DNA of 64,000 bases from Haplodiscus bocki (Eukaryota). Shown one piece after another: positions 1,320-55,899 of the stretch. The first letter of the stretch is position 1. Each line of letters begins with the position of its first letter. The stretch covers positions 58,528,001-58,592,000 of the forward strand of contig OZ296650.1 of the NCBI GenBank assembly GCA_965655095.1, written 5' to 3'. The position numbers and the translations under genes were made by a program. Below the pieces are notes generated by a model. That model did no database searches, was not told the origin of the DNA, and saw only the letters and a program-made list of their open reading frames with translations.

Positions 1320-1924
1320 TATTCTTGAATAGGTGTTTGCCTCACGTCCTCCTGGTCATCATTTGAAATTTTTTGGGGTTTTCTTTTGTTTGAATATGGG
1401 TTTCAGTCCTTTATTAGTTGGAAGGCTTTGATTTATTTTTTAGTGGCTATCTTCAGTGCGTGGTTTGAGGAGGAAAATTCTGTTGAAACATTGAAGAATT
1501 AATTTCAAGCATACAGGCAACTATTTAGTAGCAATTCCTGAAGAGCTCTCCCAATCTATTCTTTACAGCTTTATGATTTTTTTAATCTCTTTTTTTGTTA
1601 TCATGCGGAAATTAGAATTCAATACAAGTTTATTCTTCAATATGTCTTCTTTGCATTTAATTTCCATGCGGTTATTAGATGTTTATTTTTTGCCCACTGG
1701 TTTATTAGTTGTTTATTTTTCCGGATAATATTATTTCCGGTTAGGGGAGGGTTTGTTGTCAAGAAAAGATACGTCAATTAATTTAATAGCGCCAAGATTT
1801 AATGATTCAAAAATTGATTAGGTTGAGATCATGCTTTCCCACATTGTATGATTTAATTAATTTCAAAATATTCGTCAGAATTATACAACTAGGTATGGTG
1901 GTAATATTTTCTGCTGTGCCACAT

Positions 1925-16375: not shown

Positions 16376-16984
16376 TCATTGAAGGACTGTGACCAACATG
16401 TCCACGAGGACAGTGGCTGTGTGATTAGTGTGTGTTTGCCAGTCAAAGCGTGTTTTTGGGACCGACAACTCACTTACCTCGTGCTGAATGTTATTTCGAG
16501 TCTCATCATTTACATTTGATACATGTAGTACATTGTTGTTTCCAGATATGTTTTGAAAAGAAGCATTAATCCCTACATGTTCCCTGCGTTCTGAATTTGC
16601 TGTAACACTGGTCGCATTTTGTCCCGGAGACGCCTTTTTTGACCTCATTGCCAATTCAATCATTGGAGCAACAATGCTTTCGGTAGCGGTCAAAACTGCG
16701 TTCTGGATTCTGTGTTCAACAGTATCAACAATAATGCTCATATCTCTGTCAATCCTTTCATTAAAGCATCTTTCCAAGGTTTTCAATTTCACTCTATTTT
16801 CATTAGTCGCTGAATTATCACTAGGGGTACCCACGGTAAAATCTTGGTCACCAATACCTTCATTGACTATAATGTTTTCTTGTCTTTCACTAGCAGCATT
16901 GCCAAAAATGATATCCCGATCGAAGTCATCTAATTGGCTAAGCAGCCATCTGGTTGACTGTCCTTTCTTGCGAGTAGAAACCAT
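16376..16984 (-). CDS. 202-aa ORF starting inside the LTR (putative Gag N-terminus), read through into flank
   Basis: MVSTRKK...LSQLDDFD...RIQNAVLTA..IVAPMIELAMRS...QTHTNH stays open to the LTR end at 16420; the last ~14 codons are flanking DNA. Confidence 0.55.
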   Translation of the reverse strand: MVSTRKKGQSTRWLLSQLDDFDRDIIFGNAASERQENIIVNEGIGDQDFTVGTPSDNSATNENRVKLKTLERCFNERIDRDMSIIVDTVEHRIQNAVLTATESIVAPMIELAMRSKKASPGQNATSVTANSERREHVGINASFQNISGNNNVLHVSNVNDETRNNIQHEVSELSVPKTRFDWQTHTNHTATVLVDMLVTVLQ

Positions 16985-17293
16985 GTTTGCTTCAATAACT
17001 CAATTGTACTTGAGACTGCAACATTAACAATAACACAAGAACGTGATGATAAATTAAAATACAAAACTCTTGAGAGTTTTAATAAGTCAAAAATGAGGGT
17101 TGGAAGTTTGAATGAATGGTTGAGTAAACTGTCTTTCAGAATAATATTTTTCTTCTGATTTCGGCTTTTGGTCAGTCGTGGGTCACCCTTTCCTTCTTTT
17201 GACCTCATATTCGTTGACCAATTGGGTGGCCCAATCCACTGACGTCATATCTGCAACTCTATTTTTAGTTAGAACTTCGAAGGGCTCATCACA
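16420..17293 (-). mobile_element. Solo LTR (~874 bp) of a Gypsy-like family
   Basis: Terminal inverted TGTGA...TCACA; a CCAAT box and a perfect CRE (TGACGTCA, 17240-17247) in the U3-like end; no PBS follows; no clear TSD. Confidence 0.65.
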
Positions 17294-17999: not shown

Positions 18000-18199
18000 N
18001 NNNNNNNNNNNNNNNNNNNNNNNNNNNNNNNNNNNNNNNNNNNNNNNNNNNNNNNNNNNNNNNNNNNNNNNNNNNNNNNNNNNNNNNNNNNNNNNNNNNN
18101 NNNNNNNNNNNNNNNNNNNNNNNNNNNNNNNNNNNNNNNNNNNNNNNNNNNNNNNNNNNNNNNNNNNNNNNNNNNNNNNNNNNNNNNNNNNNNNNNNNN
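18000..18199. other. Assembly gap (200 N)
   Basis: N run. Confidence 1.
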
Positions 18200-18263
18200 A
18201 ATAGAGGACCAGGCTCACAAATAACTGCTTGGTTCTTCTTCTACTCCTTGCCATTTTTAACTG

Positions 18264-18330
18264 ATCTGAGTTAACTTTACTACGGAAAGATCAACGACAT
18301 ATTAAGTTTTCACATTCACATTTCGAAATT
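18264..18330 (+). repeat. Dispersed repeat, copy 1 (copy 2 at 20622-20690)
   Basis: gatc(a/t)acgacatattaagttttcacattcacatttc is shared by 18289-18324 and 20648-20683. Confidence 0.85.
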
Positions 18331-19784
18331 CATTTTTTGATGAAAAACAGGCATATCGTTTTCTAATGGGAGCTGGCTAAAAGCAAGGTCAACTGCTGCA
18401 CCAGTTGTTAGTTCGTTTATAGTGAATAGACGGAAGAAAAAGAGGCCTGAAGAATCATCTCACCAAGAATTTTTTAAATCAAATGCTTCATTTTCTCAAG
18501 TTGAATTAAACCTACGAAATGCGGCAAGGAACGTTTCTAATTTTTGGGCAGTGCGAATTATTTTTTCCTTCGTTTTAAGGAAATCATGACACCAACGCTT
18601 TCTAATTTTAAATCAACTGTCCCTCAATCTCAATTGTAGAAAGTGCGCATCGCGAAAGTACATTTAATTTTTTTGGGCTCAATAGTTCAAAAAATATGCA
18701 ATTTGTGCAAGTTTGCGCAAGGGGAGAGCTAGTGTTCTGCTCTGAAACATCGACAACGTTATGAAACTAAAACATTGGCCTCTCCTACCAAGAGAAAACC
18801 ACTGCTGATTTTGTATCTTCTGGTTCATGATGAGCAACACTTTTAGCGCCGTGCTTTTTCTGGTTGCTTTCCATTGCTATCGCTCAATTCCTTTGTTTGC
18901 GCAGGTGCACGCATTTTTTTCATGAAGCAAAAAAATCCCATTATCGATTCTTTTCTTTGTCCAACCGTTTCCCTCAGGTATTGAAAAAGGGAATGTCGTT
19001 GTGCCTCCCTCTCCTCTGCCGTTTTTGTGACGTCATAAGACTGCTTCTTATTTGAAGTTTTCCTCAGAATTGAGATAAAATTTTGTATTGGATGACCTAG
19101 CTAAGTATTCTTCTTAGACCGATGATGCCTTGATGTAAATAAACAGCAGTTCATTTATTTTGGATGCTTACGTCACGCAAACACACGGAAAAATGAGTTG
19201 CACTGAAACGAAACCTTGCAAAAACTCTGAACAAATATTAATTGGCAGTTATTGGTTTTCACACATACCTGTTATTTTGACGTTATTATAAATTTACAAG
19301 CAGCAATACAGTGATTAGAATCTCAGTGACTAGCGGCTCAGCCGGGTAGGTGGGGAAATTTATTGGAACATTTTCAGAATTATTGATCTAAACAAGTGAA
19401 TGTACTAAAATATGGATGTACCCTGATCGGAGAAGCATACAAATTTTGAATGTTACATGCATGCAGCCAGCCAAAATATTTTTTTTTATAAAAGAAGGAA
19501 AATTCTACAAAATCTTGTAAAAGTTTGAGACCAATTTCTAACGTATGGATGGAAAAAATTGAAAGCAACATGGACACTTTAGTGAGAATTTTCATGTTTG
19601 AAAATGGTCGCTTCTAGAGGAAATCTCGATGTATCTTGCAACTGGGAATCTAGAATCTTCGCATCTTGCATTCTTGAAATAATCTTAGGATTCTAGAATG
19701 ATCACTTGGTTATAACATCAGCTTAAGGCTGGAAAATCCAAATGACGCTACACCATCAGAAATGAAACTCCTCGTTTGAACCTT

Positions 19785-20389
19785 TTAGTTATTGATAATT
19801 TTATTATTTTTCGCACTATATATAATATACAAGAAAAATTATTCATTCAGTACAGTGTACAGTGGGGTCAATTTTTTTTATCTGACCAAAACTGCCAACT
19901 CTTTTTATTCAAAAATAAATGAGAGCAGTATGGTTAGGACAACAGCGTTCTCAAGCAGTAGGTTATGGGTTCGAGTCTCTGTCGTGCCAAATATTTTTAC
20001 GACTCATCCTTATCATTTTTGACGCCCCAAATTAGTGAAACACTAAAGGGTTCCTTTACGAAGTTTTTCGGCACTGTGAGACAAAAAATTTCGACGGAAA
20101 ATCTTGATACCCCCTCCCCCCTCCCCCTCTCTGATGCATAAAAGTTTTCGCTATCCGAAATTTTCTGATACACCGAAGTGTTCCCCAACAAAATTTTTCG
20201 GTACTGTGAGACAAAAAATTTGAACGAAAAGTCGTGCATAGAATATAGAAATCAGTGGTGGAATTGATGTTTGTAGAAAACTTTCGCAAACTAGATTTTA
20301 AACAGTAGTCTCGTTTTTAACTGTGGGCAAATGTTGAAATATTTCTATTCCTGCGAAAAATATGCCGGTGCTAGCCGGCCATCTTGTTT
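19785..20389 (+). mobile_element. Non-autonomous Helentron/DINE-like element with an internal tRNA-like segment and minisatellite
   Basis: TT-flanked 5' TTAGTT; 3' hairpin GCCGG-tgctag-CCGGC (20364-20379) followed by CTTGTT; ~130-bp internal duplication (ttttcgg.actgtgagacaaaaaattt at 20064 and 20194). Confidence 0.55.
19918..19989 (+). ncRNA. Degenerate tRNA-derived sequence (Glu-CTC-like), not a functional tRNA
   Basis: TGGTTAGGA D-loop-like motif, TTCTCAA loop, B-box GGTTCGAGTC (19968-19977), 3' CCA; the acceptor stem does not pair. Confidence 0.5.
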
Positions 20390-20688
20390 GAGTATTTTCT
20401 ACAAAAATCGATGAAAACATTTCTTGGTATCGGTCAGCATCGACAAACATCTTCTCTTATCTTTAAGCCGCTAATTTTGACAATGAAAAATCTTTACAGG
20501 CAAAAATATCGTGAAAACTCGGCCATACGTGTCGCTCAATCAGACCCTCGAGTAAATTGATAACTGAAGCACCGAATTTTCACTTTGGGTCTGCATTGGC
20601 TAATAGTTAGTTGATTGAAGGGATCCCATTAAATCTTACAACCGAATGATCTACGACATATTAAGTTTTCACATTCACATTTCTGAAA

Positions 20689-22768
20689 TTTTTTTGCTCC
20701 GAAATCTTTTGTAAATTTACAAAGCAGCTGTTTTTGCGGAAATTTCATGTCAAAAAATGATGGAAAAACCAAAAAATGATCAAAAACTCATGTGACGAAA
20801 CAATTCGCATCAAAATTCAATTTGTGGTGAAAGCCACTAACGCTCACTTTCGACAAAACAAAATTCCTAAAACACCCAATGTTTGCCGCAACAAAGTTTC
20901 GGAAAATCAAAAGCAGTGTTGAAGGGGCTTCTTTTGGCTCATTGTTATCATGAGGGTGCGTAAAAAAGCGTGTTGCATTAATCATAACGCATTTTGCATT
21001 ACAATTTCAGTGCAAAATAAACAAGTCGGCTCTCCATTAGTTTCCGGTATTTTTGAGTGGAGTCCACGAAATAAAAAGAACCGTCAACAATTACTTGGAG
21101 CCCCCAAAAGATTTCCCAATTGGATTGCAACTTTTCACTTAAATACACTTCGCTGGATTTTCTACTTGTGTCATTTTTTCAAGTGCATCATGAAAGAAAA
21201 ACCTTAAATGGAAAATTTCTACAAAAACAGTTTCAGTTTTTTTCAATCAAATAAAACGATATGCTTCCCAGGTTGAGCATCCATTCATAATCATCCAAAA
21301 CCTATCAATGGCTCAAAGCTCGCAGTTGTATGTAGAACCACTATATAGATCAAGGCCCAAAAAAGTTCGTCTTTTAAAAATTTAGGAATTTCATGCCAAT
21401 TGAAACGAACTAAGTGATATAGTAAACGCCCCGAAAAATTTACTGGAAAAGTTGAACCCACAAGCGTTGTTTTTCAGATTGTAGTGTAAAAAATATAAAA
21501 ATGAAGTCTAATGAAAAAGAGTTTCAAATGAAAAACTAATGGTCGTGCTTATGGCAAAAAACATGCTGGTTATTATAAAATGTTTTCAATTGCTTTCAAT
21601 TGTGAAAAAAAGTGTGGTATTGTTTGTTGTTATATCTTCAACACGTGGCGGCTTGCAACAATAGATTAAAAAGTTAGTTGATACGCCTAAAATTTTTTTC
21701 CTTCTATATGAAAAGTAACACCCATGGTATCATCTCAATGGATGAACAACAATAAAATTTTCCTAATGAAAAATTTGTTTTGAATTATTAACAAGAACCC
21801 AGTCGGACAGTGATTTTTTCCGTCAGAGGGGCACAAAACGATTGATCAAACATTCATAAAAAACAAATTGGACTTTTGACTATGGGGAAAAATCCTCAAA
21901 ACAACACTTTAAGTCACATGAACCCCAAAAAACAACCAAAAACAGCAAATAAACACCAAAAACCATTAGAAACAAAATCTACTCAATATTATTACTCCCA
22001 AAAAACAATGAAAAACGCCACACAAACTTGAAACCCAGCTTGACGCCCTATGCCCTAATTTCAACGTTTACAGGTGACTCAAAACTTTCGAAAACTTCCA
22101 AAATCACGCTAATACTTGAAATGAAACCAAAAAAGAATAACTTCATTTTGCCGAAAGCAAAAAAAATGACGTGTTTTTAGTGCATTGTTTCTCTTTGCAT
22201 TAAATGCAAAATATCGCTTCCATTTTTAACTAAAAGCGTATATACACACGCTTTATACCAATAGAAGAAATCAATCCAAACCAAAACAATTAGTGTTTTA
22301 AATACAGCGAAGACCACACTTCAAGCGAGCCCATTTAAGAGTGAAAAGAATAGTGGTTTTTTTCTCTGCAAAAAAAACATCGGTTGCGCTGGTTAAGAGT
22401 AAAAGCATACATACATTTTCAACCACTCCAGTGTTGCCTCCTATAGCATAGATGTAATGTCCTTGACTGAAGTTAGGCCTTTGGCTGGATAGTTTGTGGT
22501 TTCCATCCTGGGAGAGTCCTTTGAGCTGTCTGAGTGTCCCATTGTTTTTGTCTTATGCGCTTGCTGTAAGAGGAAAATCATCAAGCCTAATGTTCCTAAA
22601 AAAACATGATCACTGCTGAAAAGATATAAGTAGAACGGACTCCCAATGGGCTCATATCTCCTGTTTTTGTTTGGAAAACTGACTTGGCAGGAACCAAAAA
22701 ATTATCTATAGTTTTAAAGATAGTTTTTTGCTGGCGAACCAAACATCTGTCTGTAAAACAATTTTCAT
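20689..22768 (+). repeat. Left arm of a ~2.1-kb inverted repeat
   Basis: Reverse complement of 29598-31768; coordinates sum to 52378 in the core; twin 85-aa ORFs at 20950-21207(+) and 31171-31428(-). Confidence 0.97.
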
Positions 22769-22989
22769 AAAAACCTCTAAAGTCCAGCTAAATTATAAAC
22801 TTCATAAAAAATCTGAATACAAAAGTGTGAAAAATCATTTCATAGAAAATTTTTATAGAGAGTATATAACTTGTACAGCTTGTGGCTGACAGCATGAACG
22901 GTCTAATGATATTAACCAAAGAGTAACCAACAGGCATCTGGCAAGAAGTAGAGAACACTTTTGCCAACAATGTATAAGAACTGTAATAT

Positions 22990-25900
22990 TGCCGGTTAAA
23001 AAAGATCATTTAGAATCTGATGAACAAAAAATTACAAAAAAATGTTGTATTGTGAAGCCTGCGAAAAAAATTAATTACTCTAATCCTTCTCAAATCAAAT
23101 CTACTGCTCCTTCGAAAAAAATATCGACTTTAGAAAAACTGACGAACACACTGATAGAAAGTTTATATTTGATGATCTAGTTGTTTACCAATTAGATAGC
23201 ATAGTTTAAGAAACTATTGAATATTGTATGAAAAACTCCTACAGATTCAAATGCAAATAAAAAGTTAAAGTAAAATTTGCTCTAGGATAAAATGGAGAAG
23301 ACCAAGTTTAATATACGATAGTAAATAGTTGTAGAAAATTACACGAACCAAACGATGAAAAAAAATAAATTAGATGTCAAATCCATAGTTATGAACAAGG
23401 AAAAATGGTTTTAGTTTTGATAGTGTAATAAAATTCGCAACAAAGTGGTTTAAAATCCTTGGTAAAAGAGCTTTTAGTTATTGCATATTACCTATGCCAT
23501 ATTCTAATTCAACATCTGTTATCCCGTAAACATCCGTAATACAGCAGAAAAATACTGTTTCTGGTGCTGTATTGTAGCTTATTTTCATGAAGTAAAGTAT
23601 ACGTTTTGAACGAGTGCCACTTTACAAAAAACACTATACAAAACTTACCCTAAGGAACATACAAACCCCAATGAAAAACGAAGATGAACCAAAATTTGAG
23701 AAATTAATTAAACTCAACAACAAAATTTTGAAGTACCATCATTCAGAATTTTTACTAATATACATAAACAAAAAACTAATGTGAAACACAAACAGATCAA
23801 GTAACGTACAGAAACCATTATTGTTTGATAATAAAACTTACAAAACTTTTGTTAGATAAACAATTTGTAAGCGTTTTTTGTAGTTGATGAATAAAAACAT
23901 ATGCAGGCCAATCGCAACTAGAAAACCATGTGCAACACGTGTTGAACAAGAAATTTGTACCACATCATACTCGAAGCCTAACTAGTAGAAAGTTTTTTCG
24001 ATTGGCATATGAAAGTAGACCCACCAATATGAATAGCTGCTGTTTTCGAATGTAGAAAGATTCCAATGCACGATCCACTTCAGAACATATTATTTGTGAA
24101 AAAAACCATTAGAAGTAGGTTACAACATAGTAAAAAAGTCATAATATGAAAACTTCAAATTGGAAAAACGAGGTTTTCTAAAGTTTTGTGAAGAAGTTGA
24201 TGTTGAATGGATTCCAAGTGAAATGCTATAAACAAAGACGAATATGAAGCACTAATTTGAAAATAGGTTTAAATTATTACCCATTACAATGCCTAATAGT
24301 GAATATGAAAAAAACCTATGTTGGTTATGTGAGAAAGAGCTTTAGAAACGAAAACAGAAACAAAAGTCCAGTTTATTACAGTCAACGTCATCTAATAGGT
24401 AAATTTAGAAGATTAGCACAGAATAAATTTAATCTAAAAACACGAAATAAAATATGCTTCAATTGTACGAATTTTTCCTTTTTTTTCATCATAAGATTGC
24501 CATCTCAGTTTTGAAAACTTGGAAAAATTGCAAGAGAAAAAGATATTGAGATAAAAGGAGATAATAAGATGGCTAAATCATCAGAAAACTACTTATCTGT
24601 CAAATTATGATGTTTAAACATCTTAGATTCTTATAGAGTTTTGAATGCTGGCTTCGATGAATTATCTGCAACAATAACATCAATCACAACTTTAGATGAG
24701 AATGGATTGGAGGATGAGTTATTTCATAAAAAAAGCCTTCCCCTTCGAAGAATTTTAAATTCATGAATAGTTTTATGAGCCAAAGAATTTGGAAGAAAAG
24801 ATTCCTTCTCAGCTTCAGAACAATGTACACCAGATGATGAGTAAACAACAAAGACTCAAACTATGTATGAAAATTATAATATCACCAACGGCAAAGATCT
24901 AACGATGATGTATCTGAAAAACGATGTGTTATTGTAAGCAGATATATTCCAAATTTTTTTGAATACATATAAACCTGCATATGGTAATAATCCACTTTTT
25001 TCATACACTACTCATAGTTTCACATAGAGAGCTGGTTTAAATTGATTTGGACTATAATTAGATTAAATAACGGACGATCAACTCAGCACTTTACCTGAAA
25101 AAAAAATATGAAGGGTGGCCCTGTTTCGATAATGGGAAATCGATATGTAGGACCAAGTGGGAGAAAAAAATACAATTTTGGCTTTTGAAAATATTACATG
25201 GAACAAGTATGTGTCACTACTTACCAAAAGGAAACTTTGATGAAACTGAAATCACTGAGAAAAAAATTTTTTGAGATCAGGTATACACACTAAAGCTGAG
25301 CAAAAACATGATAATTTATAGAATGTGATTTAAAAAATCCACCACGAATACAAAGAAAAATTCCATTCAAGTGAGAGAAAAAAAAATCAAATCAAAAGAT
25401 TTTTCAGAATATATGATGAAAACAAAATCAAAACAACCCAGCACAAAATTGACTACGGATCGAAGGATTGGCCAAAAGTATCTATTACAGTATAGAAACT
25501 TCTAGGTTTATAAAAAAAATGGAAGCAAAATTACAAAAATCTGAATTGTTTTTCATATAAAACAATCACCATGGCTAGCGAAACTTATATAAAATAGTGA
25601 AGATCCAAAAAATAAGGCGAAATCCAAATCTGAAATTGTCTTTCGCAAAAATACTGACTAATGCTCTCTAGAGAAAAGTAAAAAGGAAAATAGATAAACG
25701 TATAAACGTTGATTTGCTAACTAAAAGGGATATAAAAAGAAGTAAACAGACAATCAAAATAACATTTAACGTTATATTTGGAAAATTTGAGATTTTTAAT
25801 TTCCCTGATTTGATAGAGGAAAAGTTTTTTCAGCCAAACCTATTTAGGAAGGGTCTTTTGTTAGAGTCATCCAAATGAGTATCTGTGGTAATCAAAGAAC

Positions 25901-26400
25901 TTCCTTGTTTTGCAGGAGATAACATGGAGTTACATTAAAACGGATACGAAATCATTTTTATTTTCCTTATTGCCCAATTGAAGTCCTATGCAGTGGGTTG
26001 AAAGATTTCATTAAACGTTTGGGATTATTGAATTAAAACAATCACATTAACTATGTTCAGAAAATAACTTTAACCAATTTTTAAAAAGGAAATATGAATC
26101 ACCCCAGAAACTGAATTATATGAAGCAGTGTTTATGGAGAGTAGGTCTTTAGTTTTTGAAAAAACTATCAAATTCAAATGAATCAAATCACAAAAAAACA
26201 CAATCACACAGTATATTAACTTTGAAAGAAAATAAAAAGTGTTTAAGAAGCACGAAACCAATTGGGAAGCTATTTATTCTTTCAGAAGTGAAAAGCATGA
26301 ACAATTATTGGTAAAACAATCAAAGGCAGTCTGGGATACAATCGATGAAATTTAATCTTAATATAAAGATGAAAGTCTACCATGGGATGATTGTGAATAT
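22990..26400 (+). pseudogene. pPolB: Protein-primed DNA polymerase B #2 (Maverick-type, with endonuclease-VII-like insert)
   Basis: IAAVFEC (Exo I, ~ADFE); CWLCEK...QRHLIGKFRRLAQNKFNL (~DHCHLTGKFRGLAHNxCNL); LDSYRVL; YLKNDVLL*ADIF; MKGG; KQSPWLA; KILTNAL* (motif B); KPI; TDT (motif C); terminal PWD. Confidence 0.85.
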
Positions 26401-26429
26401 CGCGATGAGTTTAATCCATGAAATAGTCA

Positions 26430-27230
26430 AGGGAACCAGCAGCATTTTTTGAATGAAATTTATGCCAAACCTCCAAAAGAGATATATACTACCAACAAAG
26501 TTTTTGTATACTACATAGATGATATTTTGAGTATGGATTTATTTGACCTACTTGAAAAACGTCCAGAAAATAAAAAAGCTTTTAGATAAACTTTTATACC
26601 ATTTGACAGTTCCTCAAAGATTGGATAAAAATTTCATTTATTAAAAACGCTCGAAAAACAAAAAAAATCAATCGAGAACATCCTTAAGAACTCAAAAAAG
26701 TTCCCAAGTTTATTTGAAGCCGATGATGGAGTTGAATCTGTCAACAAAATTTTCTACTGATTTTTTTTCAAAAAAACATTATTAACAGATATAGTTGCCA
26801 CACATCGGAAGGAATACGTTTCGCTGAACGATTTAACAGTGCTCTGGAAAATCTTTTCAAAACGCCTGTTTTTGAAAAAAGTGATGCCAATTGGACAGAT
26901 GAAAGGAATGCAGTAACAAAACAAGGTAAAAATGAAAAAAACTGTCTTCAACTAAATTAAAACTAATTGAATCATCTTTAGGCAAAAAGAAGAAACAAGA
27001 ACCGAATAGGAAGTTTATGTGGAACTGCAGACAAAAAATTGTTTTTCCAAAGGTGACAAAACAGATTGGTCTCAACGGTTGTCTACAATCCATGAGGATT
27101 TTGATGTTACAGTACCAACTCATCAGATAAAAAACATGCCCGAAATATGTAACGAAGCATTGCCAAGGAAATCAGATTCTACAACGGAATAAGAAACATT
27201 GCGTTGAAAAAGTTCGAAAGAGATTAGGTC
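26430..27230 (+). pseudogene. Polinton rve integrase #2 remnant
   Basis: NEIYAKPPK..YTTNK; YIDDILSMDLFDL; LFEADDGVE (~IETDDGKEF); FAERFNS; FEKSDANW; FSKGDKTDWS; CNEAL. Confidence 0.85.
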
Positions 27231-27239
27231 AATAAATCT

Positions 27240-28115
27240 TTAAGCATCACTACTCAATAATATTGTCTTGTTTGTGAATACGAGAATAAAACCAGTTAAT
27301 TGTACATCAGGTGCAATTACGGGTCTAAAATCGAATTTTATTTTTCCGGATTGAGGAGAAGAAGATTCGTTTTGGTAACTTTTATCAAAACCAAAAAAAA
27401 ATTCTTTTTCCTGAGATTTAGAGAAATCTTGTGTTTCATAAAGATGAAGGATCTTATCCTCAGTCAAAAGTCTGAAACACCATATATTTTTACACCACAA
27501 GTTAAAAAAATTTTCAATTCGGTTATCACAACTCATACTCGCGTTTGGATCTTTTACAATTGCAACATTACCTCTAGTTTTTGAAACAGTAGGCCAAAAG
27601 AAAACAACATTATTCGCTTTTTGGTAGGCTAAACGATTTCCTCCTGGGAAACCTACTATGACCAAAAAGTAACCTTAATTCTGTTTTTTACCGAACTCAA
27701 AAATCCCATATATTCAGTATATACATCTTCACTATAGACTCATCTTTCAATGTAAGAAAATCTTGTTGGTGCTCTTACTATAGGGTGGAGTGTAATGTTG
27801 GACAAACCAACTAACATCATTTGTTTTACTTCTTCCTTTTTTAGAATGTTTTCTATCATTATTTACATCTTGAGGAATCCCAATTGCAGCCCGGTTAGCG
27901 AATGCATGGCTTAAAACACTATCATCACTTTTTCAAGTTTTTGGTAATATATAGCCCAAACCATAAAGACGGCTTTCCTGGTGCTTAGCATACCCAAAGA
28001 CAATTTTTAGGAATATTTTAACATGAAATCTACCCTTGTTTGCTGCATCATTAAATTTTTTCAATTCTCCTTTACGTTTCTGATTACTTCAATCAAATCC
28101 GTTTGAAATATCACT
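27240..28115 (-). pseudogene. Polinton major capsid protein, C-terminal part
   Basis: FGYAKHQE..YGLGY; VIVGF...FWPTVSK..KDP; CFRLLTEDKIL; FD.SYQ; GFILVFTNK.I..SSD. Confidence 0.65.
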
Positions 28116-28480
28116 GCTGTCTTTGGTACTTGTTAAAAATTAGTACATTAGGCGTACAACAAAGCATATTCTATGCGTTCCAAAAGTTTCCCACTACTAT
28201 TAATCAGCTTATACTCAGAAAAAAACAGTTTCCATTTCTTTTGAAGATGAAAGCAGATAATAGTTTTCGTGGCGTGCAACCATATAAAACAAAATAATTT
28301 TGTTTATGTATGTCACCCAATGTGCGGTTTTCGTGGGGTAAAGATTAACAGCGGCATATTCTGATGAAAATTTACTGTCTCTCACGTAAATTTTTTGTAT
28401 TTGACACTTTTTTTCGTAATTTATTTTTTTCCTAATTGATGTTGCTCAATTTTCCAATTTATTTTTTTTTGAAATTCAGT
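28115..28480 (-). pseudogene. Adenain-type (C5) cysteine protease #1 remnant
   Basis: RDSKFSSEYAAVNLYPTKTAHWVTYI (~GxHWV), then YGCTP (~FDSYGxxP) and SEYK.I. Confidence 0.7.
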
Positions 28481-29500
28481 GGAAAACAGTGTCAATACAT
28501 TTCACTCAGTTCTGTTGCTCTTCTTTGTCATTTTTCAAAAGTAAAAAAATCCTCAAAGATCTCGTATTTGTTATCATGTCTATCAAGGAAGCAAACATCA
28601 TAAAGTATTCGCTTTTGCTTCATTTTTTTTTCAATCCTCCCAAAAGAATATCAACTCCTTTTTCATCGCTCACGGAGTTCTTTATTTTTTCAAACGAAAT
28701 TTCGATAATGATAAAAAGGTTCCTATCTAAAACTAGACTGATCTTCTCTGATGTTAGATTGATTTTCGCCATGGTTTTCAGAGTTTCATTTCGGTTCATA
28801 AAAACAGTAGTTTTTAATATTTAGAGCACGATGCACCTTTGTCCTTTTTTGGAGGAGTTCATTACTAGTACGGTATAGAAAACCACAAATTCTACAAATT
28901 TCGTACACTTAATAAATCTTATCTTTTCAATTGGAATGATACTTCAAATTGGATTTCAAGTCAAGTTCGCTTTCGGTTCCCAATTCTTCATTATCACAAA
29001 CAATACTATCTTGATTTTAAAGTTAGAATTTAAAAATTCCATCTTCATCATCACATATTCTTGGATTTCTGTGATTAATGAAGTCTGGTGTGGATGATTT
29101 GTGAACTTTATAACCTTGTTCAGGAATATCTTTTTTATTAATTTCACAAAAAAAAATCAAAATCATTATCTCCTTCAAAGTTTATATTAAAGCTCTCCAG
29201 ATCATATTTATATTGGATAACTTTTTTGCTGTTACAAAATTATTGATGACCTTCAATATTTAAAAAAAAACAAAAATTGACAAATTGCACAAAAACACTT
29301 TTTGTCTCTTCTCTTTCTAACTTCACCTGGTTAATGTTCTCTCGTGTGTTGGCTTTGCAATCGGTCGGATTTGTTGGCATTTTTTCTGTTTTTTCACAAA
29401 CCTGCAACAAAAACCTCCCTAAAATACAACCAGTTTTTCTATTGAAAACAGCCCTAAGCATTTTTCGTTCAATTGTAAAGTTACTATTTCACAAGGTTTG
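28480..29500 (-). pseudogene. Conserved Polinton ORF(s) of unknown function
   Basis: EICRICG.YRTS and DILLG....ASLID motifs upstream of the protease. Confidence 0.4.
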
Positions 29501-29597
29501 TATTTCATTTATTTAGGACTTCATCATTTGAATATTTTTTAAAATTTCTAAAATGCAAATGTAAAAGTTCTGTTTTAAATTAAGTTCAAACGTTCCA

Positions 29598-31768
29598 ATG
29601 AAAATTTTTTTGGAGACCGATGTTTAGGTCGCAAGCAAAAAATTATCTTTAAAAATAAAGACAAAAGTTTGGTACCTCCCAAGTCAGTTTTTCAAACAAA
29701 AACAGGAGATATGAGCCCATTGGAAGTCCGTTCCTTTTAAAACTTCACAAAACTGAGCAAGTTTCTTTAACAATCATGAGTTTGGTGACTATCTTTCTAC
29801 AGCAAGTGCTAATGACAAAAACAGGGAGACGTTCAGAGAGCTCAAAGAACTCTCCTAAGATGGATGCACAAACGTTTCGGACAAGGCCTTAACTTTAGTA
29901 ATTACAGTACCACTACGCTATCTGGTGCAAAAATGAGGCGGTTGAAAACGTATATATGTCTTTACTCCCGACAGGCGCGAAGGACGTTTTGTTATGCAGG
30001 GACAAACAACACTATTTTTTACTCTTAAATAGGTTCGCTTGAACAGTGATGTTCGCTGTATTTTCATGTCGGGTAAAAACAATAAATGTTTTGGTTTGGA
30101 TGGCATTTTTCCATTCGTATAATCCGTCTGTATTTAAGCTTCTGGTTGAAAATGGAAACGACCTTTTGCATTTATTGCAAGGAAAAACAATGCAGTAAAA
30201 ACCCGTCTTTACTTTTTTCGTTTTCGGCAATATGAAGTTCTTCTTTTCTGGTTTCATTTCAAGTATTAGCGTGATTTTGGAGGTTTTCGAAAGTTTTGAG
30301 TCACCTGTAAACGTTGAAATTAGGGCATAGGGCGTCAAGCTGGGTTTCAAGTTTGTGTGGCGTTTTTAATTGTTTTTTGGGAGTAATAATATTGAGGAGA
30401 TTTTGTTTCTAATGGTTTTTGGTGTTTATTTGCTGTTTTTGGTTGTTTTTTGGGGTTCATGTGACTTAAAGTGTTGTTTTGAGGATTTTTCCCCATAGTC
30501 AAAAGTCCAATTTGTTTTTTATGAATGTTTGATCAATCGTTTTGTGCCCCTCTGACGGAAAAAATCACTGTCCGACTGGGTTCTTGTTAATAATTCAAAA
30601 CAAATTTTTCATTAGGAAAATTTTATTGTTGTTCATCCATTGAGATGATACCATGGGTGTTACTTTTCATATAGAAGGAAAAAAATTTTAGGCGTATCAA
30701 CTAACTTTTTAATCTATTGTTGCAAGCCGCCACGTGTTGAAGATATAACAACAAACAATACCACACTTTTTTTCACAATTGAAAGCAATTGAAAACATTT
30801 TATAATAACCAGCATGTTTTTTGCCATAAGCACGACCATTAGTTTTTCATTTGAAACTCTTTTTCATTAGACTTCATTTTTATATTTTTTACACTACAAT
30901 CTGAAAAACAACGCTTGTGGGTTCAACTTTTCCAGTAAATTTTTCGGGGCGTTTACTATATCACTTAGTTCGTTTCAATTGGCATGAAATTCCTAAATTT
31001 TTAAAAGACGAACTTTTTTGGGCCTTGATCTATATAGTGGTTCTACATACAACTGCGAGCTTTGAGCCATTGATAGGTTTTGGATGATTATGAATGGATG
31101 CTCAACCTGGGAAGCATATCGTTTTATTTGATTGAAAAAAACTGAAACTGTTTTTGTAGAAATTTTCCATTTAAGGTTTTTCTTTCATGATGCACTTGAA
31201 AAAATGACACAAGTAGAAAATCCAGCGAAGTGTATTTAAGTGAAAAGTTGCAATCCAATTGGGAAATCTTTTGGGGGCTCCAAGTAATTGTTGACGGTTC
31301 TTTTTATTTCGTGGACTCCACTCAAAAATACCGGAAACTAATGGAGAGCCGACTTGTTTATTTTGCACTGAAATTGTAATGAAAAATGCGTTATGAGTAA
31401 AGCAGCACGCTTTTTTACGCACCCTCATGATAACAAGGAGCCAAAAGAAGCCCTTTCAACACTGCTTTTGATTTTCTGAAACTTTGTTGGGGAAAACATT
31501 GGGTGTTTTAGGAATTTTTGTTTTTTGTCAAAAGTGAGCGTTAGTATCTACTTTACATAACCTGAAACTGATGTAACTATTGACCTGGTTTTCAGTGCAG
31601 ATATATTCGAAACGATGTGGCTGGCTTTCACCAGAAATTGAATTTTGATAAGAATTGTTTCGCTACATGAGTTTCTGATCAATTTTTGGTTTTTCCATTG
31701 CCTTGTGACATTCAATTTCTGCAAAAACAGTGTTTTGTAGACTTACAGAAGCTTTTGCAGCAAAAAAA
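29598..31768 (-). repeat. Right arm of the ~2.1-kb inverted repeat, with 77 extra bp at 31546-31622
   Basis: 30398-31381 is the exact reverse complement of 20997-21980. Confidence 0.97.
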
Positions 31769-32299
31769 GTTTACAAACAATTTCTTAAAAACAAGTCTAG
31801 CAATAAATCAGAGCAATAAATTTTTAGCTTTTGAGAATGATAGGTTTGAAAATCGACAAAATAACAAAAGAAGTGCTTTCTGTGATTTTTGGGCCTGGTA
31901 TGAAAATTCTGTTGCTTGTGCAAATGTCAGAAAACCTCAATTGAATGTCCAATCTACAGACGGAAGGTTATTGATTATTACCTTGATAGAAGAAGTCAAG
32001 ATAACAATTGTGAAGAAGTGTGAATTCGAAAGTCGGGTTATATCAAAAATAGTTTGGTTCTTTCACCCTTTTGGACCATCCTTATTCCGACGCTGAGACA
32101 GCGATCCCTATTTTTCTATTGAATTGTCATTCTCAGGTCTAGGTCTAGAGAGGTCGGTTGAGCCTATAATGAAAAAATTCCAGAAGGTACTTTGTAAGAA
32201 TTTTGTGTTTGGAAACCCAGTTCTGTGGTTGTTAAAAACATTTCTATCATTTTGGCTCGACAGCATTCGGACCCACTGAAAAAAAACTTCCAGGAAATC

Positions 32300-35989: not shown

Positions 35990-38280
35990 TTTTGCCATTA
36001 TTATGATACGCCCCAAACAACTGAAGATCTCAACCATCATATTGATGATGCTTAATAGGAAGGATTCGATTTCATCCTTAAAGAAAACTTCGAGGAAAAA
36101 AGTTAGAAATCAAAAAAGTACAAGATTTATTGCCTTCCAAGAAGATATATAAAATACTTTTTCTACAGACATAATGAAGATCAGTTTTGTTTACTCTGCT
36201 GGTCTAGAATACTTTTATTTCTATTTGACAAAGTTCAATATTGCACTAGTAATTAGTCAACACATATAAATGGTCAAGTAACCTTCATTTTACGAGGCCT
36301 GAAGTTCTTTATGCAAGTAGGATGGGCCCTAAGATTGGAAAAGTAAAACCAGAAATCATTCTATATGAAGAAAAACCAATTAAATCTGCTGATGGAAAAT
36401 TAACTCCTGTGTAAAATCAAAAATGTTTCATCACTTTTTACCGCTGTATGAATATCACTATAGTTAAATATCAATATTACAAGCCCTAGTGTTAAAAAAT
36501 TCACAAGTGAAACACACTCAAGGAAATTGTTCAACTTGTTTTTCAACAATATGTACCCTAGACTATCATTTACGAAGATGTATGAGACACGATCCTACAA
36601 AGAATTTTTTTCCCGTTTGATGACACGACAAAATTCAAAAATTTTTACAAAAAGAAAGATGTATCAAATACGGCGTATGTTGACGATGAAAGCTTGAAAA
36701 TCAATGAAAATTTCTAGCCTGTTGGGACTGTGAAGACTCTCATCCCGTCGAAGAACCTGAAGTGAAGTCTTCAGAAACACGATTTGAACAGAAGCCAATA
36801 GTAGCGTGATGCAAAACAGAAAGCTTGAACAGAATTGTGTTTCAACTTTCTGACTTCATTCTGTTGAACCGACGCTCAATCTGGAAAAAAGGCTTTTCAA
36901 AACGCTAAAGCAAGTCAAAATACTAACCATGACACTTGAAGAAAAACAAAAACAACAAAACTTTTCAGGGTTGTGCGAAAAACTTTTGAAATTTCATGTT
37001 GGAAAGTCTATTTATTGCGTACAGAGGGATACCATAACCTCGTGGAAGGCGCAAACAAGGGAACAGGTCACAAGGTTTGTAAAGTTAGATGTAAGTAAAA
37101 GTCGTCGATTTTTTGCCCAAAAATTTTCAAAGTCTTCCTCGTCATGATAACCGTCTGTTCTCTGAATTTTTTTTTCACAAGCTGATAATGAACGACATCT
37201 GGAACCCCAAATAATTCCATGCAGTAAGGAGAATTTGTTGGAGAAAAAGTTATCCATGTTATCTAAGGTATTCAGATCGTTCTACTACTTTGAATAGGAG
37301 TTAACGTAAGCTTTCTGAATCGTTGAAACCGCTTCCTCATATGGATAGCCAACAATAGCAAAACAAATCGCTCTAAGATCCAGTTCCTCAGAAGATATTA
37401 GTATGTACCATCAAGAAGTTTAACTCGAAAGATCTGGAAAAATTTGTATCCTAAACTGAAGACGATCATTGGTCAACTCTAAAACAAAAAGTAAACTAAA
37501 CAAGAAGAAAAATGCCGTACAATTGAAATTAAAAAACAAGTTAGTAAAATAACAGAAAAAAGTAACAAATCTCTATCTAAAAATCATTATTACTGTACTA
37601 GCAGATACATTAAAAAGTTTTTCGAGAACATCTGAGTTAAATTGCAAAAGAAACTTTTGAAGATATAGTACCCCTGGGTAACCTTGGAACGCTGGTTTGA
37701 GACACATCCTTTCAAAAAATAAATGTCTGCTTTTGGTAGTGGTGAACAAAAGGGAAAAGTGCCTTTAAAATGTAAGAGGAGATCGCAATGAGGAAGATAG
37801 GAATAGCACAAATTTGGTGTATAATATTCCAAAAAAAATAAATTTTGGTTGGGCAGTTAGTAAGTATCATCCAATAAGATTTCTTCAATGCTTTATCTCG
37901 ACTAGCAAAATAAGTTCTGAAAACCAACTTCTATCTTATAATATAAACATTCTTTAAATTAACGAGTGGGGTTTCTCCTTAAGGAAAGTGATGTTGAGTA
38001 TGCATTCATTATATAAAAAAGTAGAAAGTCAATCTTTACAACTTTATCAAAAATCTGAACTAAACGAAAATACTCCATCTAAGAAACAAATCCAAACTTA
38101 CTTTGTGATCTATTCAAAAAATATAAAGGTATGATACACCATGATATTTTGAAGCTATATTTAGGACAAGGCAAGAAAACAGTTCGAGCACACACAAAGA
38201 AAACCCGATAAATCGAATCCGGTTGGTTAACAGTTTAGATAGACTTTTTTGAAAAACGAGACGGAAAACAAAAACAGGTT
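35990..38280 (+). pseudogene. pPolB: Protein-primed DNA polymerase B #3 (Maverick-type), 3'-truncated before motif B
   Basis: NEDQFCLLC; AYVDDES (Exo I); RD.HN.VEGANKGTGHKVC (endo VII); HDNR (~YDxH); LYLK....LAD; PG..WNAGL; GWAVSKY; ESDVEY. Confidence 0.7.
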
Positions 38281-43870: not shown

Positions 43871-45729
43871 ACACGTTTTCTTTCAGAAAAGTGGACAAAA
43901 ACACTAAATATGCATGGACTTTACACATTCGAGACAAACATCGAGACACGAATCAAGAAAAAACTAACACATCAAAGTAAGAGCCAGATAAAACTTGATC
44001 AGATGGAGGCTAAACAACTTCTATTGTTATCCGTTATCTTCCAAGATTTTCCCACGAAAATTCTTCTCTACAAAACGTGATCTTAAAGCTGTTGGCGTTG
44101 AAAATTCCAATACATTCGCTTTGGAACCTAAAAGAACTGATGTACATGCAAGGGGAAGCACGCTGGTTGTATCATACCGGCAAGGATGTCCTTGACTGGG
44201 TATAACGAAAATATGAACAGCATTAAAAAAATCACTCGGCTGAAACATCGAATGAATAGTAGAAAGGACAGAAGAAAACAAGTCACAAAACGCTGAATCA
44301 GAAAGCACACAAACAGAAACATCATATTTTTTTTTCGTCTGTTCCTTCTGCTCTTGGTTTGTCTATGCGTGACTATGTTAGCGTTTCTGAAAAACTTATT
44401 CTGTACAGCAAAGCTTGTACAAAAAAGTGGAACCGCAAAAAAACCAACCAAACCCCAGTAACATATATTAGAAGATAAAAACAAAGAAGTAATTCACGGA
44501 AGCAATCATCAACAAGGAATCTCGGGGATATGTTTTGATTTTACAACGAAAAACAAAGAAGTAGAAAGTATGCACACTTTTCACAGCATAGAATAATAGA
44601 AACCATTAGGGACCTTTGCCTAAATTTCACTAAAACAACTGGGATTTTCTTACTGTATCTTCTCTTTTACTTGCAATTTACAGTGGATAGGTTTTTGGTG
44701 TTTCGTTTTCTGCTTTGTTGTTTTGTTTTTCGTTCTGTGATGATTTCAGATTCCAGATCTGTTGCAAAAATCGTTAAACATGCTTTTTTTTCTCAGTTAC
44801 TGGGATTGCAATTTAATAACACAAATTTCGAACCGGTCTTTCAAAACCTATGAGCTGTGGAAAGCAAAGAATACACGTGAACAAAATGAGACATACAATC
44901 TTTCTAAGTGACTCAGATTTTTTGAGTTCGGTTCTCTCAATAAATGAACCTTCCAAAGATGATTTTGGTTTGATTAAGTTTGGGAAAGGGTGGTGGACAT
45001 CCATTTGAATTAGAAATGAAATTGATTGTGTGTAAAAACTAATATTTTTCTTTTGTTTGATGCAAAAAACCACCAAACAAGTAGGTGAAGAACTGTCATT
45101 TCATATATGAATGCCACATTTGACATCTAGTTCATCTATACCTTCTTGTGTTCTCAGATCTAAGGTGGCTCGCTCTTTATATTTATAATTTTTAAAAAAT
45201 TTTGTGGGGACCTCCTTGCTTATTTTTCATCTAGAAAACCCATTTTTTAATCTCAACACTTCTCATTGGATAGCTTTAATTGTAATTTCCTTCACTGAGA
45301 CTCGAAGCTGAATCTTGAATCAAAACAAAATATTGAGCCAACCGTTCCTGGATTTTAATTTGATTTTCTTGCTTTGATCTACTTTAACAATCCAAATGTT
45401 CGCTTCCACTGGTCTGGTTTATCAATCAGTGTTCTGAAAACAACTTCACTGTTCCATTCGATAACATTTTTCGTTGGACTAAAGTTTTTCATTTTGAACA
45501 CGCACAGAAACTCCTTCCAAGAAGTTAGGTTTTTAATGTTAAAAGTAGAACTGTTCCGGATTTAGTCTTTTCGGTGATCTTTTAAGGGCTTTCGCAATAA
45601 CGCTCAGTTTTTTCTCAAGTAAAATGATTTTTTCAAAACGCTAAATTTCGAAATTCTTAGGGCCTTGCGATAGCGAGGGATTGTTTGTTTCAGGTGTTGG
45701 AGGGCTTGTTTCTGGTTTCTTGTTTCTTT

Positions 45730-45975
45730 TATGAGGGTGCGTTAAAAATTTGTGGCTTCACTCACTACGCGTTACACAATTTGAATTACGGAATTTGAAC
45801 TAGACGTTTTGATTTAAAACTTCAGCGCAAACTATACAAGTTGGTTCTCCATGAGATCCCGGTTTTTTTGGAGGAACTTCACAAAGTTAAAGAAAAAACG
45901 TGAACAATTACTTGGAGGTTTCAAAAAACTTCCCAACTGGACTGAAGCGTTTAATATACATATGCTTTGCTGCCC
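45730..45975 (+). repeat. Third, diverged homolog of the inverted-arm sequence (20949-21155)
   Basis: atgagggtgcgt..., ctccat.ag..tccggt.ttttt, aacaattacttggag....caaaa.a.ttcccaa.tgga are shared. Confidence 0.8.
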
Positions 45976-46059
45976 GGTTCGAAATTTTGGCCCAAACCTT
46001 TCCGGTAAAAGGGCGTTAACGGTCAAAATTAGCCACTGTATCTGTAACTAACAGGAAGA

Positions 46060-46160
46060 AGAGCGGCGATAACAGCGTTTAACCGGAAAAACATTAGCCT
46101 GAACGGCGTTCAAACTGAAAAATAGCGGCGCTAAGGGTGTTTAACCGGAAAAACGGGGCG
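46060..46160 (+). repeat. GC-rich ~31-bp minisatellite related to 15975-16037, in opposite orientation
   Basis: agcggcgataacagcgtttaaccggaaaaac / agcggcgctaagggtgtttaaccggaaaaac, spaced 62 bp. Confidence 0.7.
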
Positions 46161-47664
46161 TATTTTCAGAAAAGTCCAATCTGGGTGGTTCTTCCCCTAG
46201 TGCCATTATTTGTTATGATGCTCAGTTCACAATAAACTTTGAATAACACAATTTTAGCAAAAAGAGCTTCATATTTGACTAACTTATCGAAATGGTAGGT
46301 TTTCTAGGCTGAGCTAACTTCGAAAATCATCCACGATGCGTCCATGGCTCATAGCTTGGCTTGCCAAGAAACATTCCATGATCAAAGAAATGTACCCGAG
46401 AGCCATGGTTCATCTTGGATCACATTCAATGAATCATGGATTATGATCATGGACCGTTCTCAAACTAAGATCCCCAACCTTTGTCACAATTGCGATTTCA
46501 CATCAATTTCCAGTGAGGTTTGTATCAACTTTGAGCTAATAGAAAGACAGCATTTCAGTGGTTACTGAAACAGTTATGCTGAATAACCACACTGTTACCG
46601 TTGCATTATTCAATCCCTTTAGAAGTTTGTCCTATCAGCTTAAAAATTGTTGCAAAGGAGACCTCAAGGTGATACATTTGCAACACGCGTCTCAGAAATT
46701 GAAGACGTTTGCATTGGTTAAAAAATCTGAAGTGACCAAACATGGAATTTTGAGACATGCTGAGAACAACGCGTAAAAACATAAAAGCGGTCAAGTCCGA
46801 GCCCGGGCTCCCTTCAAAGAGACTAGACGGATAAAATTGGGGATAGTCAGTAGCTAAGCCCCAAAAATATAAAACATCATCCCGCCATCTTTTGATATTG
46901 AGTTCTTTCGACGTTATTTTACCCTATCCTCAAGAAAAAGCGTTTTCCAGTCAAGAATAAACCTTCAGTGATGCAGGGGAAGAGGTCAGGAGCATTCTTA
47001 CGTAATAAATTTAGGTCCCTCTAACTTAGAGGTTAAGCTTGATAGTCAAATCATGATACTATTAAAAATCTTGAACATTTAGCACTCCTCTATGGAACCC
47101 GAAACGGAAAGCCAGACACCTAATTTGCGGAACTAACGCAACTGAGATTTTTCCGTTCCCCAGAAGTAGATTGTTTGTCGTTCCCAACTGTTAAGAGTTT
47201 GCTGTGGGTTTCTATATCAACAATATTTTTTTTTGGCGACCACAGATGCATCAGAGAGTAGCCCTGACCCGGAAGTGGATTATGGAAGACCGTGGATTTT
47301 TCCTTAGAGAACTTGGAACTTAGTATTGGAGACTGTTATCCCATTTTTGAGGTTCTGAGGTCGCGAAAACTTTACTGATTATCTCGTTGCACACATTTTG
47401 GTGGCTGAGAAAGAAATCAAACTTTTTTTGAAGACAAGTTTGAAAAAATTTCCACCGCTTTCGATACTTTCAGAGTGTTTTCTTTTTTCGGGAACCGTTT
47501 TTGTCTTGAAAATACACAATTATCGCTAAATAAATTGAATTAATTTTATTTCTTTAAGGTGGGTGTCCCCTTGCCAACAGACTTAGTCCCTCAGCAATCT
47601 AGTTCAACTATAGTGTTGTTGAATGGAGTACATAGTTGGACATACATACATAAAAAGCACTCCA

Positions 47665-47850
47665 ATGCGTTCCTACTGCCTGTAATTCTGGTACAAATCT
47701 GTAGGAGACCACAGAAACTCATATGATTCAATTACCTGCCAGTCCAGTTGAAACGGAATCTGATGCGTTCCTATTGCCTGTATTTCTGGTACAAATCTGT
47801 AGGACCCCAATCAAACTCTTTAGATTCAATTAGCTGCCTGTCCAGTTAAG
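47665..47850. repeat. 98-bp tandem duplication, possibly within an LTR
   Basis: atgcgttccta.tgcctgta.ttctggtacaaatctgtagga... at 47665 and 47763. Confidence 0.9.
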
Positions 47851-55400: not shown

Positions 55401-55899
55401 CGCGTCAAGGAAAAAGCTTCCGCCCGAGGAGACACTGGCATGGTATTTTTCAAGCTGTTTTCGAAAAAAAACCCCACGTAACGCGTCAAAGTTAATCCAA
55501 TGCAGATAGAGAAGGAGCAAAGGTTTATCAGGCGCCAGTAGAGGTTGATTTGGTCGTCAGACGTAAGCAAATACGGACAAAATTGACCATGACCGTTACA
55601 AATGGAGAAAAAAGGAGAAACAAAACATTACAACGGGTTTTAATGGCTTTTTCTCTGGCCGACAAACTTTACTAGAAACGACTGACCAGCTACCACTTCC
55701 TTCTATGTGGTCAACCATCACTCAAGTAATTGCCTTTCAAAACATCTCTTCGGTGCAATGCGCCGTGTTGGCAATCATCAAAACGATGTTAAAAATTTTG
55801 ACCCGCGAGCGCAAATCCGATTGGAAATAAGTTGACAAGAATAAAGGCTCCCCCGGTCCAATGCAGGATGAACAACAGTTTTGTCTTTTCTGTAGAATA

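Follow-up and report, generated by a model that had tools for sequence, protein, structure and literature searches.

The locus lies in a window of 64,000 nucleotides of Haplodiscus bocki (assembly GCA_965655095.1, contig OZ296650.1, positions 58,528,001 to 58,592,000 of the forward strand), which is the whole stretch of DNA analysed here. It consists of a decayed repeat (20680..22768, plus strand), referred to as the left arm, and its inverted copy (29598..31777, minus strand), the right arm, which together enclose Polinton-type DNA. The length of 2.1 kb given for the arms in the initial annotation agrees with the limits obtained, i.e., 20680/31777 on the outer side and, on the inner side, 22768/29598 by pairwise alignment or 22793/29573 by nhmmer, and the whole inverted unit has 11,098 bp. 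The interior, previously put at about 7-8 kb, measures 6,829 bp from arm to arm and 8,417 bp between the perfectly identical cores that the arms contain. A 77-bp indel was also confirmed outside the core, at 20835|20836 of the left arm, where the right arm retains the missing piece (31622-31546); this piece is also present in a further relic of the arm sequence at 18.3 kb, and it is the left arm that has lost it.

The interior contains a dead DNA polymerase gene of the Polinton type (pPolB; 22869..25968, plus strand), whose homology begins about 100 bp beyond the inner end of the left arm. In the homolog search, 7 of the 278 candidates scored, the best with an E value of 2.4e-45 and 53% identity, and the Pfam family PF03175 was present in three of these seven. 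The relic, which is 53% identical to intact PF03175 proteins, is broken by 22 stops in 619 in-frame codons and by at least eight frame changes, and its decay is estimated at 0.12-0.4 per site. Two polymerase relics can scarcely be aligned with one another as DNA (score 58, against a shuffled maximum of 53).

The other genes that the annotation had listed as broken, i.e., integrase, MCP and protease, were recognised by eye only, through their resemblance to motifs which we take to be those of integrase, major capsid and protease, so that the claim holds for pPolB, while the tools were negative for the rest. A possible integrase relic lies on the plus strand at approximately 26410..27230, and possible relics of capsid, protease and accessory genes lie on the minus strand at approximately 27240..29570. 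Pfam and PDB searches gave no relevant match for the integrase-like frame, nor did Pfam, homolog and PDB searches for the capsid- and protease-like frames (Atlas leads were all below 0.9), and none of 89 candidates scored in the homolog search with the capsid-like ORF. Pfam runs on six-frame or natural translations of the arms and of the integrase, capsid and protease frames returned nothing for 12 proteins and irrelevant weak matches for 2 of 24, and 5 of 48 long ORFs (those of the 51 in the window that do not span N runs) had matches, all sub-threshold. A packaging ATPase and a minor capsid gene were not seen in the 6.8-kb interior, and the Polinton genes as a whole are some 20-25% decayed.

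Nature of the arm sequence

The arms belong to a dispersed repeat, of which at least four relics occur in the 64 kb. The third relic (45444..46362) is older and internally inverted, with pieces at 45694-45973 (plus strand, 73.8% identity), 46163-46362 (plus, 62.4%) and 45679-45444 (minus, 63.1%), and the fourth (18257..18468, plus strand) matches the outer arm sequence at 71-75% identity, its homology to the left arm running outward to about 20616. The two arms end at almost identical points and their flanking sequences are unrelated, as expected of one duplication; across nine comparisons, which covered homology between the arm flanks and extension of the third relic in both directions, no score exceeded the shuffled maximum.

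The left arm carries a pair of motifs similar to those of reverse transcriptases (22445..22654, plus strand), S-x-D-V-x-S-L followed by G-x-P-M-G-S 62 codons past the D, of which the second is also found in the right arm (29729, minus strand) and the first is absent from it. The pair occurs once in the window and in none of 400 whole-window shuffles or 5,000 arm shuffles, with patterns that were chosen post hoc, once the sequence had been seen. The spacing between RT3(A) and RT4(B) is 61-63 in the Penelope and Poseidon rows of Fig. S1 in PMC8557442. Given this, the arms probably derive from the 5' portion of a Penelope-like retroelement, cut inside the reverse transcriptase, and work like a relic of this family. 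Profile and sequence searches of the heavily decayed frames found no reverse transcriptase family, and the PDB nothing relevant; the homolog search with the arm alignment (0 of 2,088), a phmmer search of 1.84 billion proteins with a single frame of the left arm and the Rfam scan were likewise without matches. No catalytic DD, GIY-YIG endonuclease, pseudo-LTR or hammerhead ribozyme was found in or beside the arms, and the literature search produced nothing linking Penelope with PMGS. The arm ends about where the DD motif would start. A reading of the outer arm, on its minus strand, as a zinc-finger DNA transposon was dropped, given that coding bias appeared in no frame.

Stepwise identity along the arms

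The identity between the arms changes in steps and is highest in the middle of the arm, where 20997-21980 and the reverse complement of 30398-31381 agree at all 984 positions, as the annotation had it; the longest run produced by 10,000 permutations of the arm differences was 146 bp. From the outer end inward, the identity is 83.9% at 20680-20835 (25 of 155 positions mismatched), 93.2% in the outer step, 20836-20996 (11/161), which has the 77-bp indel as its boundary, 100% in the core (0/984), 98.0% in the inner step, 21981-22129 (3/149), and 79.3% in the oldest stratum, 22130-22768 (131/632, with 10 gap events). The inner step pairs with 30397-30249 and is probably an older conversion tract, the mismatches nearest the core on this side being 21981, 22010, 22096 and 22130. 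The sequence of a few SNPs to about 22128 followed by clear divergence to 22768 was thus described correctly in the annotation, except that it was placed outward of the core, whereas 21981-22768 is the inner side.

With boundaries picked from the data, the inner step differs from the oldest stratum (p=5e-11) and from the core (p=0.002), and the outer step from the outermost stratum (p=0.025). By BIC, on the other hand, a model of three segments (992.7), in which the core and the inner step are merged, is preferred over one of four (995.8), which makes the number of events uncertain. The differences between the arms show no coding bias, with 42, 40 and 33 mismatches at the three codon positions of 22130-22681 and thus no excess at the third.

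That the core is much younger than both the element and the remainder of the arms is supported, as its divergence has a 95% upper bound of 0.3%, whereas the corrected value for the oldest stretch of the arms is 24%. The core is itself decayed, with 14-22 stops per frame in all six frames and stop-free stretches of at most 69 codons, and it is collinear with the older, 74%-identical relic across its outer edge, from which it follows that its identity postdates the decay. For the same reasons, a young insert is ruled out, and the refutation through a separate young element, which the annotation had named, fails within the window. Recent mobilisation with perfect termini is also ruled out, as the arm ends have the lowest identity, and so is GC-biased conversion, as the GC content of the core (0.327) is below that of the flanking strata (0.35-0.36).

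Origin of the perfect core

These observations are reasonably well explained, and probably so, by the inverted duplication of a dead retroelement, re-homogenised by gene conversion from arm to arm and without function. A retroelement fragment, already dead, would have been copied locally, in inverted orientation, to both sides of the 6.8-kb Polinton remnant, for example through a staggered-break inversion, and the copies would then have drifted neutrally to about 79% identity. Given the proximity of the arms, the repair of double-strand breaks may have overwritten one arm from the other more than once, leaving tracts with putative ages of about 0.036, about 0.01 and less than 0.0015 substitutions per site per arm, with the 984-bp core as the youngest, and long indels and dense mismatches may have halted these tracts. 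A crossover within the core could in principle flip the interior, and its inversion through pairing of the arms, as the annotation had proposed, is mechanically possible.

The annotation had also invoked repeated intrachromosomal conversion, of which copying between the arms stands as the best explanation, with weaker support for its steady repetition. The observed profile appeared in none of 2,080 runs of a steady-conversion simulation, and in 16 of 1,920 runs (5 of 48 settings) of a second one, in which the flank threshold was lowered from 15% to 12% and indel barriers were added. As steady conversion seldom yields the profile, a few large copying events fit equally well. No such case appeared among the papers found on Polinton TIRs and gene conversion, as far as titles and the openings of abstracts show.

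Among the alternatives, the perfection of the core may derive from assembly or polishing, with copies truly 93-99% alike being collapsed to a single consensus, which is unlikely. The steps beside the core, of 149 and 161 bp, leave roughly the length of one short read to diagnostic sequence, the three inner differences are all confined to the 149 bp next to one end (chance 0.005), and the profile is one that steady-conversion simulations seldom produce. However, the 11,098-bp unit can be spanned by single long reads, and there is a 200-N gap near the unit, which we take, by convention, to suggest a scaffolded long-read assembly. Paired short reads would presumably have found anchorage in the core several hundred bases past the differences, a fold-back chimera would lack diverged homologous flanks on both sides, and a tract closer than its 79% flanks would still require a real, older homogenisation.

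It is quite improbable that the arms are true, unusually long TIRs, later converted from arm to arm, of a Polinton that underwent internal deletion and may have captured a piece of a retroelement. The position of the polymerase homology, some 100 bp inside the inner end of the left arm, and the Polinton-like genes of the interior would suit such termini, as would the oldest arm divergence (0.24-0.31), which meets the low end of twice the polymerase decay. A perfect 6-bp direct repeat (20679-20684 and 31780-31785), found with three sets of ends tried, would also agree, but it is out of register by 7 bp, and 1,569 of 20,000 random end pairs (7.8%) yield one. The AG or AGT motifs of Polinton/Maverick ends (PMC8097293) are absent at the in-register arm ends, although decay could have removed them, and the arms, at 2.1 kb, are longer than the range of 46-1,447 bp given for vertebrate Mavericks (PMC8097293). 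Moreover, identity is minimal at the arm ends, the homology of the left arm to the fourth relic continues beyond the supposed end, and the arm relics are still 62-75% alike, in contrast to the scarcely alignable polymerase relics. Given the mid-arm peak of identity, the missing end motifs, the arm relics elsewhere and the Penelope-type motif pair, the arms are unlikely to be the terminal repeats of a Polinton.

It is very unlikely that the arms belong to a young family with many copies in other parts of the genome, or were overwritten from one, whether as third donor or as non-autonomous element of decayed sequence; the arm sequence is indeed dispersed, but two events would have to share their tract limits, and the core has neither element-like ends nor flanking duplications, with homology crossing its edges.

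There is, finally, only a slim chance that selection keeps the arms identical, as a source of hairpin small RNAs or a switchable inversion, since the compatible geometry, the RNA pairing of Polinton-derived repeats described at eri-6/7 of C. elegans in the excerpted text of PMC11414722 and the rarity with which steady conversion alone maintains such a core are set against searches that revealed neither a host gene nor an RNA family within the unit or close to it (Rfam, no matches; Pfam on 48 long ORFs, sub-threshold only), the lack of a visible recombinase gene, and the decay of both stem and loop, which would leave them a poor match to active elements. The small RNAs directed against Polintons that the annotation had envisaged are unsupported, as the stem consists of retroelement-like arm sequence and would miss the Polinton genes, which stay unpaired in the loop. 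An actively maintained and transcribed fold-back or flip-flop locus derived from the retroelement relic, whose small RNAs act against that family or which toggles the Polinton remnant, is just as doubtful.

If the duplication and conversion of dead repeats is the true history, the locus is a clean natural case of non-allelic gene conversion in such DNA. Most likely it represents conversion between repeat copies, which is an already known process, with no function seen here, and it would gain in importance only with the discovery of small RNAs or of both orientations. A Polinton remnant may be flanked by near-perfect inverted repeats that are not its termini and that do not prove recent activity, so that dating by repeat identity would be misleading here. 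If the core is confirmed, a genome-wide tally of such cores could gauge the conversion rates of the lineage.

Comparison with known systems

The eri-6/7 repeats of C. elegans, as far as the excerpts of PMC11414722 describe them, also lie beside Polinton remnants and are tied to inversions and RNA pairing, but, probably unlike the present arms, they are proven Polinton termini of 744 bp with a rescued host gene. The Penelope-like elements in the available parts of PMC8557442 share the RT3(A)-RT4(B) motifs and their spacing, and inverted structures are frequent in them, although inverted copies there are truncated at the 5' side and lie next to each other, whereas the present arms are 3'-cut and 6.8 kb apart.

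For the duplication, the inversion breakpoints of Drosophila (PMC1885836, in part) offer inverted duplicates of up to about 1.9 kb and about 88% identity around a segment; those, however, were demonstrated with outgroups and are mostly unique sequence, while here the duplication is deduced and involves a repeat relic. Long inverted repeats of Caenorhabditis whose similarity is maintained by gene conversion (PMC1803023, in part) likewise combine local inverted duplication with arms too similar for their age, and perfect stretches beside diverged ones indicate partial preservation. They differ in that the arms carry paralogous host genes, the spacers measure 126-414 bp and the evidence extends across species, as opposed to the dead repeat DNA and 6.8-kb spacer of the present case.

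In the Y-chromosome palindrome P6, according to the portions consulted of PMC3723533, conversion between arms also leaves kilobase tracts (mean 2,068 bp) and inversion by crossover is rare, but the arms are far larger and above 99.9% identity throughout, in contrast to arms of 2.1 kb of which about half is homogenised. Finally, the intra-element conversion of plant LTRs described in the excerpts of PMC5751070, where 5-34% of the pairs have perfectly identical conversion segments, concerns direct repeats made by the element, whereas the present pair is inverted and probably arose by rearrangement; both present functionless perfect tracts in aged repeats a few kb apart.

Identity profile of the arms

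Self-BLAST recovered one large inverted repeat in the window, and pairwise alignment placed its arms at 20680-22768 and 31777-29598. They differ by a 77-bp indel on the outer side of the core, i.e., the longest perfect run (984 bp, 20997-21980 against 31381-30398), which confirms the identical core described in the initial annotation. From outside to inside, the arm-to-arm identity is stepped (83.9%, 93.2%, 100%, 98.0%, and 79.3%), and random placement of the 183 difference events yielded a longest perfect run of 146 bp in 10,000 permutations. The core is also far younger than the rest of the arms and, as had been claimed, than the element, with a divergence of less than 0.3% (95% bound) against a corrected divergence of 0.24 in the oldest stratum (22130-22768 of the left arm).

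A change-point fit slightly preferred three segments over four (BIC 992.7 vs 995.8), where the three-segment fit merges the core with the inner step (21981-22129) into a segment with 3 differences in 1,133 positions, which are bunched at one end (chance ~0.005). Given that the arm-to-arm differences by codon position (42/40/33) present no third-position excess, the arms appear to have diverged as dead DNA. The core itself has 14-22 stops per frame, and its longest stop-free stretch is at most 69 codons, so two perfect copies of a ruined sequence imply that the copying happened after the ruin.

The arm sequence and the elements around it

The window is crowded with decayed mobile elements: the Pfam matches of 48 long ORFs were all sub-threshold, Rfam gave no match, and the AT content of the block at ~18-46 kb exceeds that of the sequence on either side. 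The kinds of repeat present suggest an animal host. The longest ORF (315-1355, minus strand, 346 aa) has a weak, below-cutoff match to DUF1759 (E 0.0014), a family known from BEL/Pao retrotransposons, and an open frame of 207 codons at 16376-16999 (minus strand), with no Pfam match, resembles the beginning of a gag-like repeat protein. Next to the left arm, on its outer side, 20029-20236 holds two 77%-identical copies, 130 bp apart, of a ~78-bp unit that resembles a common dispersed repeat. There are also old direct repeat pairs of 57-60% identity (2672-3908; 46891-47215 with 62164-62473; 55798-56095 with 57418-57719) and a 98-bp tandem duplication of 85% (47665-47847).

In the interior, a search with the frame at 24557-25072 picked out 7 of 278 candidates as relatives (best E 2.4e-45, 53% identity), 3 of which carry Pfam DNA_pol_B_2, and these 7 mapped a pPolB relic to 22869-25968 (plus strand). 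This relic presents at least 8 frame changes among tiles, 22 stops in 619 codons over ten confidently in-frame stretches, and a rough decay of ~0.2-0.25 substitutions per site (range 0.12-0.4), estimated against random codons of local composition, from which it follows that the Polinton is long dead. The initial annotation extended such decay to integrase, capsid (MCP), and protease genes; candidate relics of these resemble known motifs by eye, but had no match in any search. A second, more distant pPolB relic (37263-38038, plus strand, 26-30% to intact relatives) sits outside the arms in an AT-rich block at ~33-46 kb, which may be another Polinton remnant.

Within the window, nhmmer found two older relics of the arm sequence, one at 45444-46362 (62-74% identical, internally inverted) and the other at 18257-18468 (71-75%). 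In the former, the 5' part is inverted relative to the 3' part, with ~13 bp missing at the turn, and an insertion holds a 31-bp tandem repeat (46049-46154). Twin-primed retrotransposition gives an inverted 5' part relative to the 3' part, and this layout fits what would be expected of that process or of a small local inversion. Comparison with the latter relic indicates that it was the left arm that lost the 77 bp of the indel, and the homology of this arm to the relic extends outward to ~20616. A piece of ~127 bp (20683-20810), common to both arms, is missing from that relic, and the left edge of this piece is the outer end of the homology of the right arm.

The oldest stratum of the left arm encodes S-x-D-V-x-S-L followed, 62 codons past the D and in the same frame, by G-x-P-M-G-S, and this pair is spaced by 61-63 residues in Penelope and Poseidon, as counted from Fig. 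S1 of PMC8557442. The pattern drawn from that figure, picked with the sequence already in view, had 1 match in the window, 0 in 400 window shuffles, and 0 in 5,000 arm shuffles. The right arm retains the second motif only, no catalytic or endonuclease motif was found after the pair, and database searches for the retroelement identity of the arms returned no match. Judged from sequence, the arms are probably a retroelement relic.

Origin of the arms and homogenisation of the core

Because both arms end at nearly the same two positions, with flanks that are unrelated, they would have arisen in a single local inverted duplication, possibly through a staggered-break inversion, a process reported to leave inverted pairs of up to ~1.9 kb (PMC1885836). 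Later arm-to-arm repair then probably overwrote nested tracts. Gene conversion is described as more likely between close repeats of high identity that share perfect stretches of ~200 bp, and as rare below 80% identity (PMC3924818), and, given this dependence, an existing core would feed itself while flanks behind indels escape.

The repeated conversion initially proposed agrees with the stepped identity and the perfect core, but steady conversion seldom reproduced them. A simple simulation reached the target profile (a perfect run of at least 900 bp with a flank diverged by 15%) in 0 of 2,080 runs, and one with indel barriers and a 12% flank threshold in 16 of 1,920. These 16 runs fell into 5 of the 48 settings, close to the tipping point, chiefly where initiation was 10-30 times as frequent as mutation. 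Time was fixed at 0.12 per arm, and the counts are therefore conservative. This rarity suggests a transient state or the product of a few large template-switch events, and a scan that looks for extremes could well pick out such a locus.

The perfect core may, less probably, be an assembly artefact, given that both intermediate steps (20836-20996 and the inner step) are about one short read long, but the 11,098-bp unit can be spanned by long reads and 79%-identical sequence should not be merged by any assembler, so that some real homogenisation is needed either way. A gap of exactly 200 N lies at 18000-18199, 2.5 kb from the left arm, and a second N run (192) close to the window's right end.

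It is improbable that the arms are the terminal inverted repeats of the Polinton: Polinton-like genes start directly inside both arms and the dating is compatible, but the arm ends have no end motif in register, the arm-to-arm identity is lowest there, and the sole 6-bp direct repeat nearby is out of register, one being found in 1,569 of 20,000 random end pairs. Vertebrate Mavericks are described as having repeats of 46-1,447 bp, with AG or AGT as end motifs and target duplications of 6 bp (PMC8097293). That the core is a separate young element inserted twice is ruled out within the window by its decay and by the older relic at 45444-46362, whose collinearity with the arm continues across the outer edge of the core, interrupted only by a 35-bp insertion of its own at that point.

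Inversion, fold-back RNA, and known systems

Besides arm-to-arm gene conversion, an invertible interior and anti-Polinton small RNAs had been proposed. If a crossover took place in the core, 8,417 bp would be inverted; such inversion happens between IS terminal repeats (PMC3004938), and in palindrome P6 inversions are reported as rare relative to conversions (PMC3723533). The stem of a fold-back RNA would be arm sequence only, with the Polinton genes in the loop, and anti-Polinton small RNAs thus do not follow.

In the literature covered, mostly outside subscription papers, no case of a Polinton with gene conversion and terminal inverted repeats appeared. At eri-6/7, repeats beside Polinton remnants are described as co-opted, with a host gene that depends on them (PMC11414722), whereas no such gene was found at this locus, and the avian immunoglobulin system, as presented in a preprint (10.64898/2026.09.05.749481), has functional donors and so is not a close match. 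Gene conversion between repeats has been described (PMC5751070), and the kind of structure is already known, i.e., a conversion-maintained inverted repeat, of which earlier cases are on record (PMC1803023).
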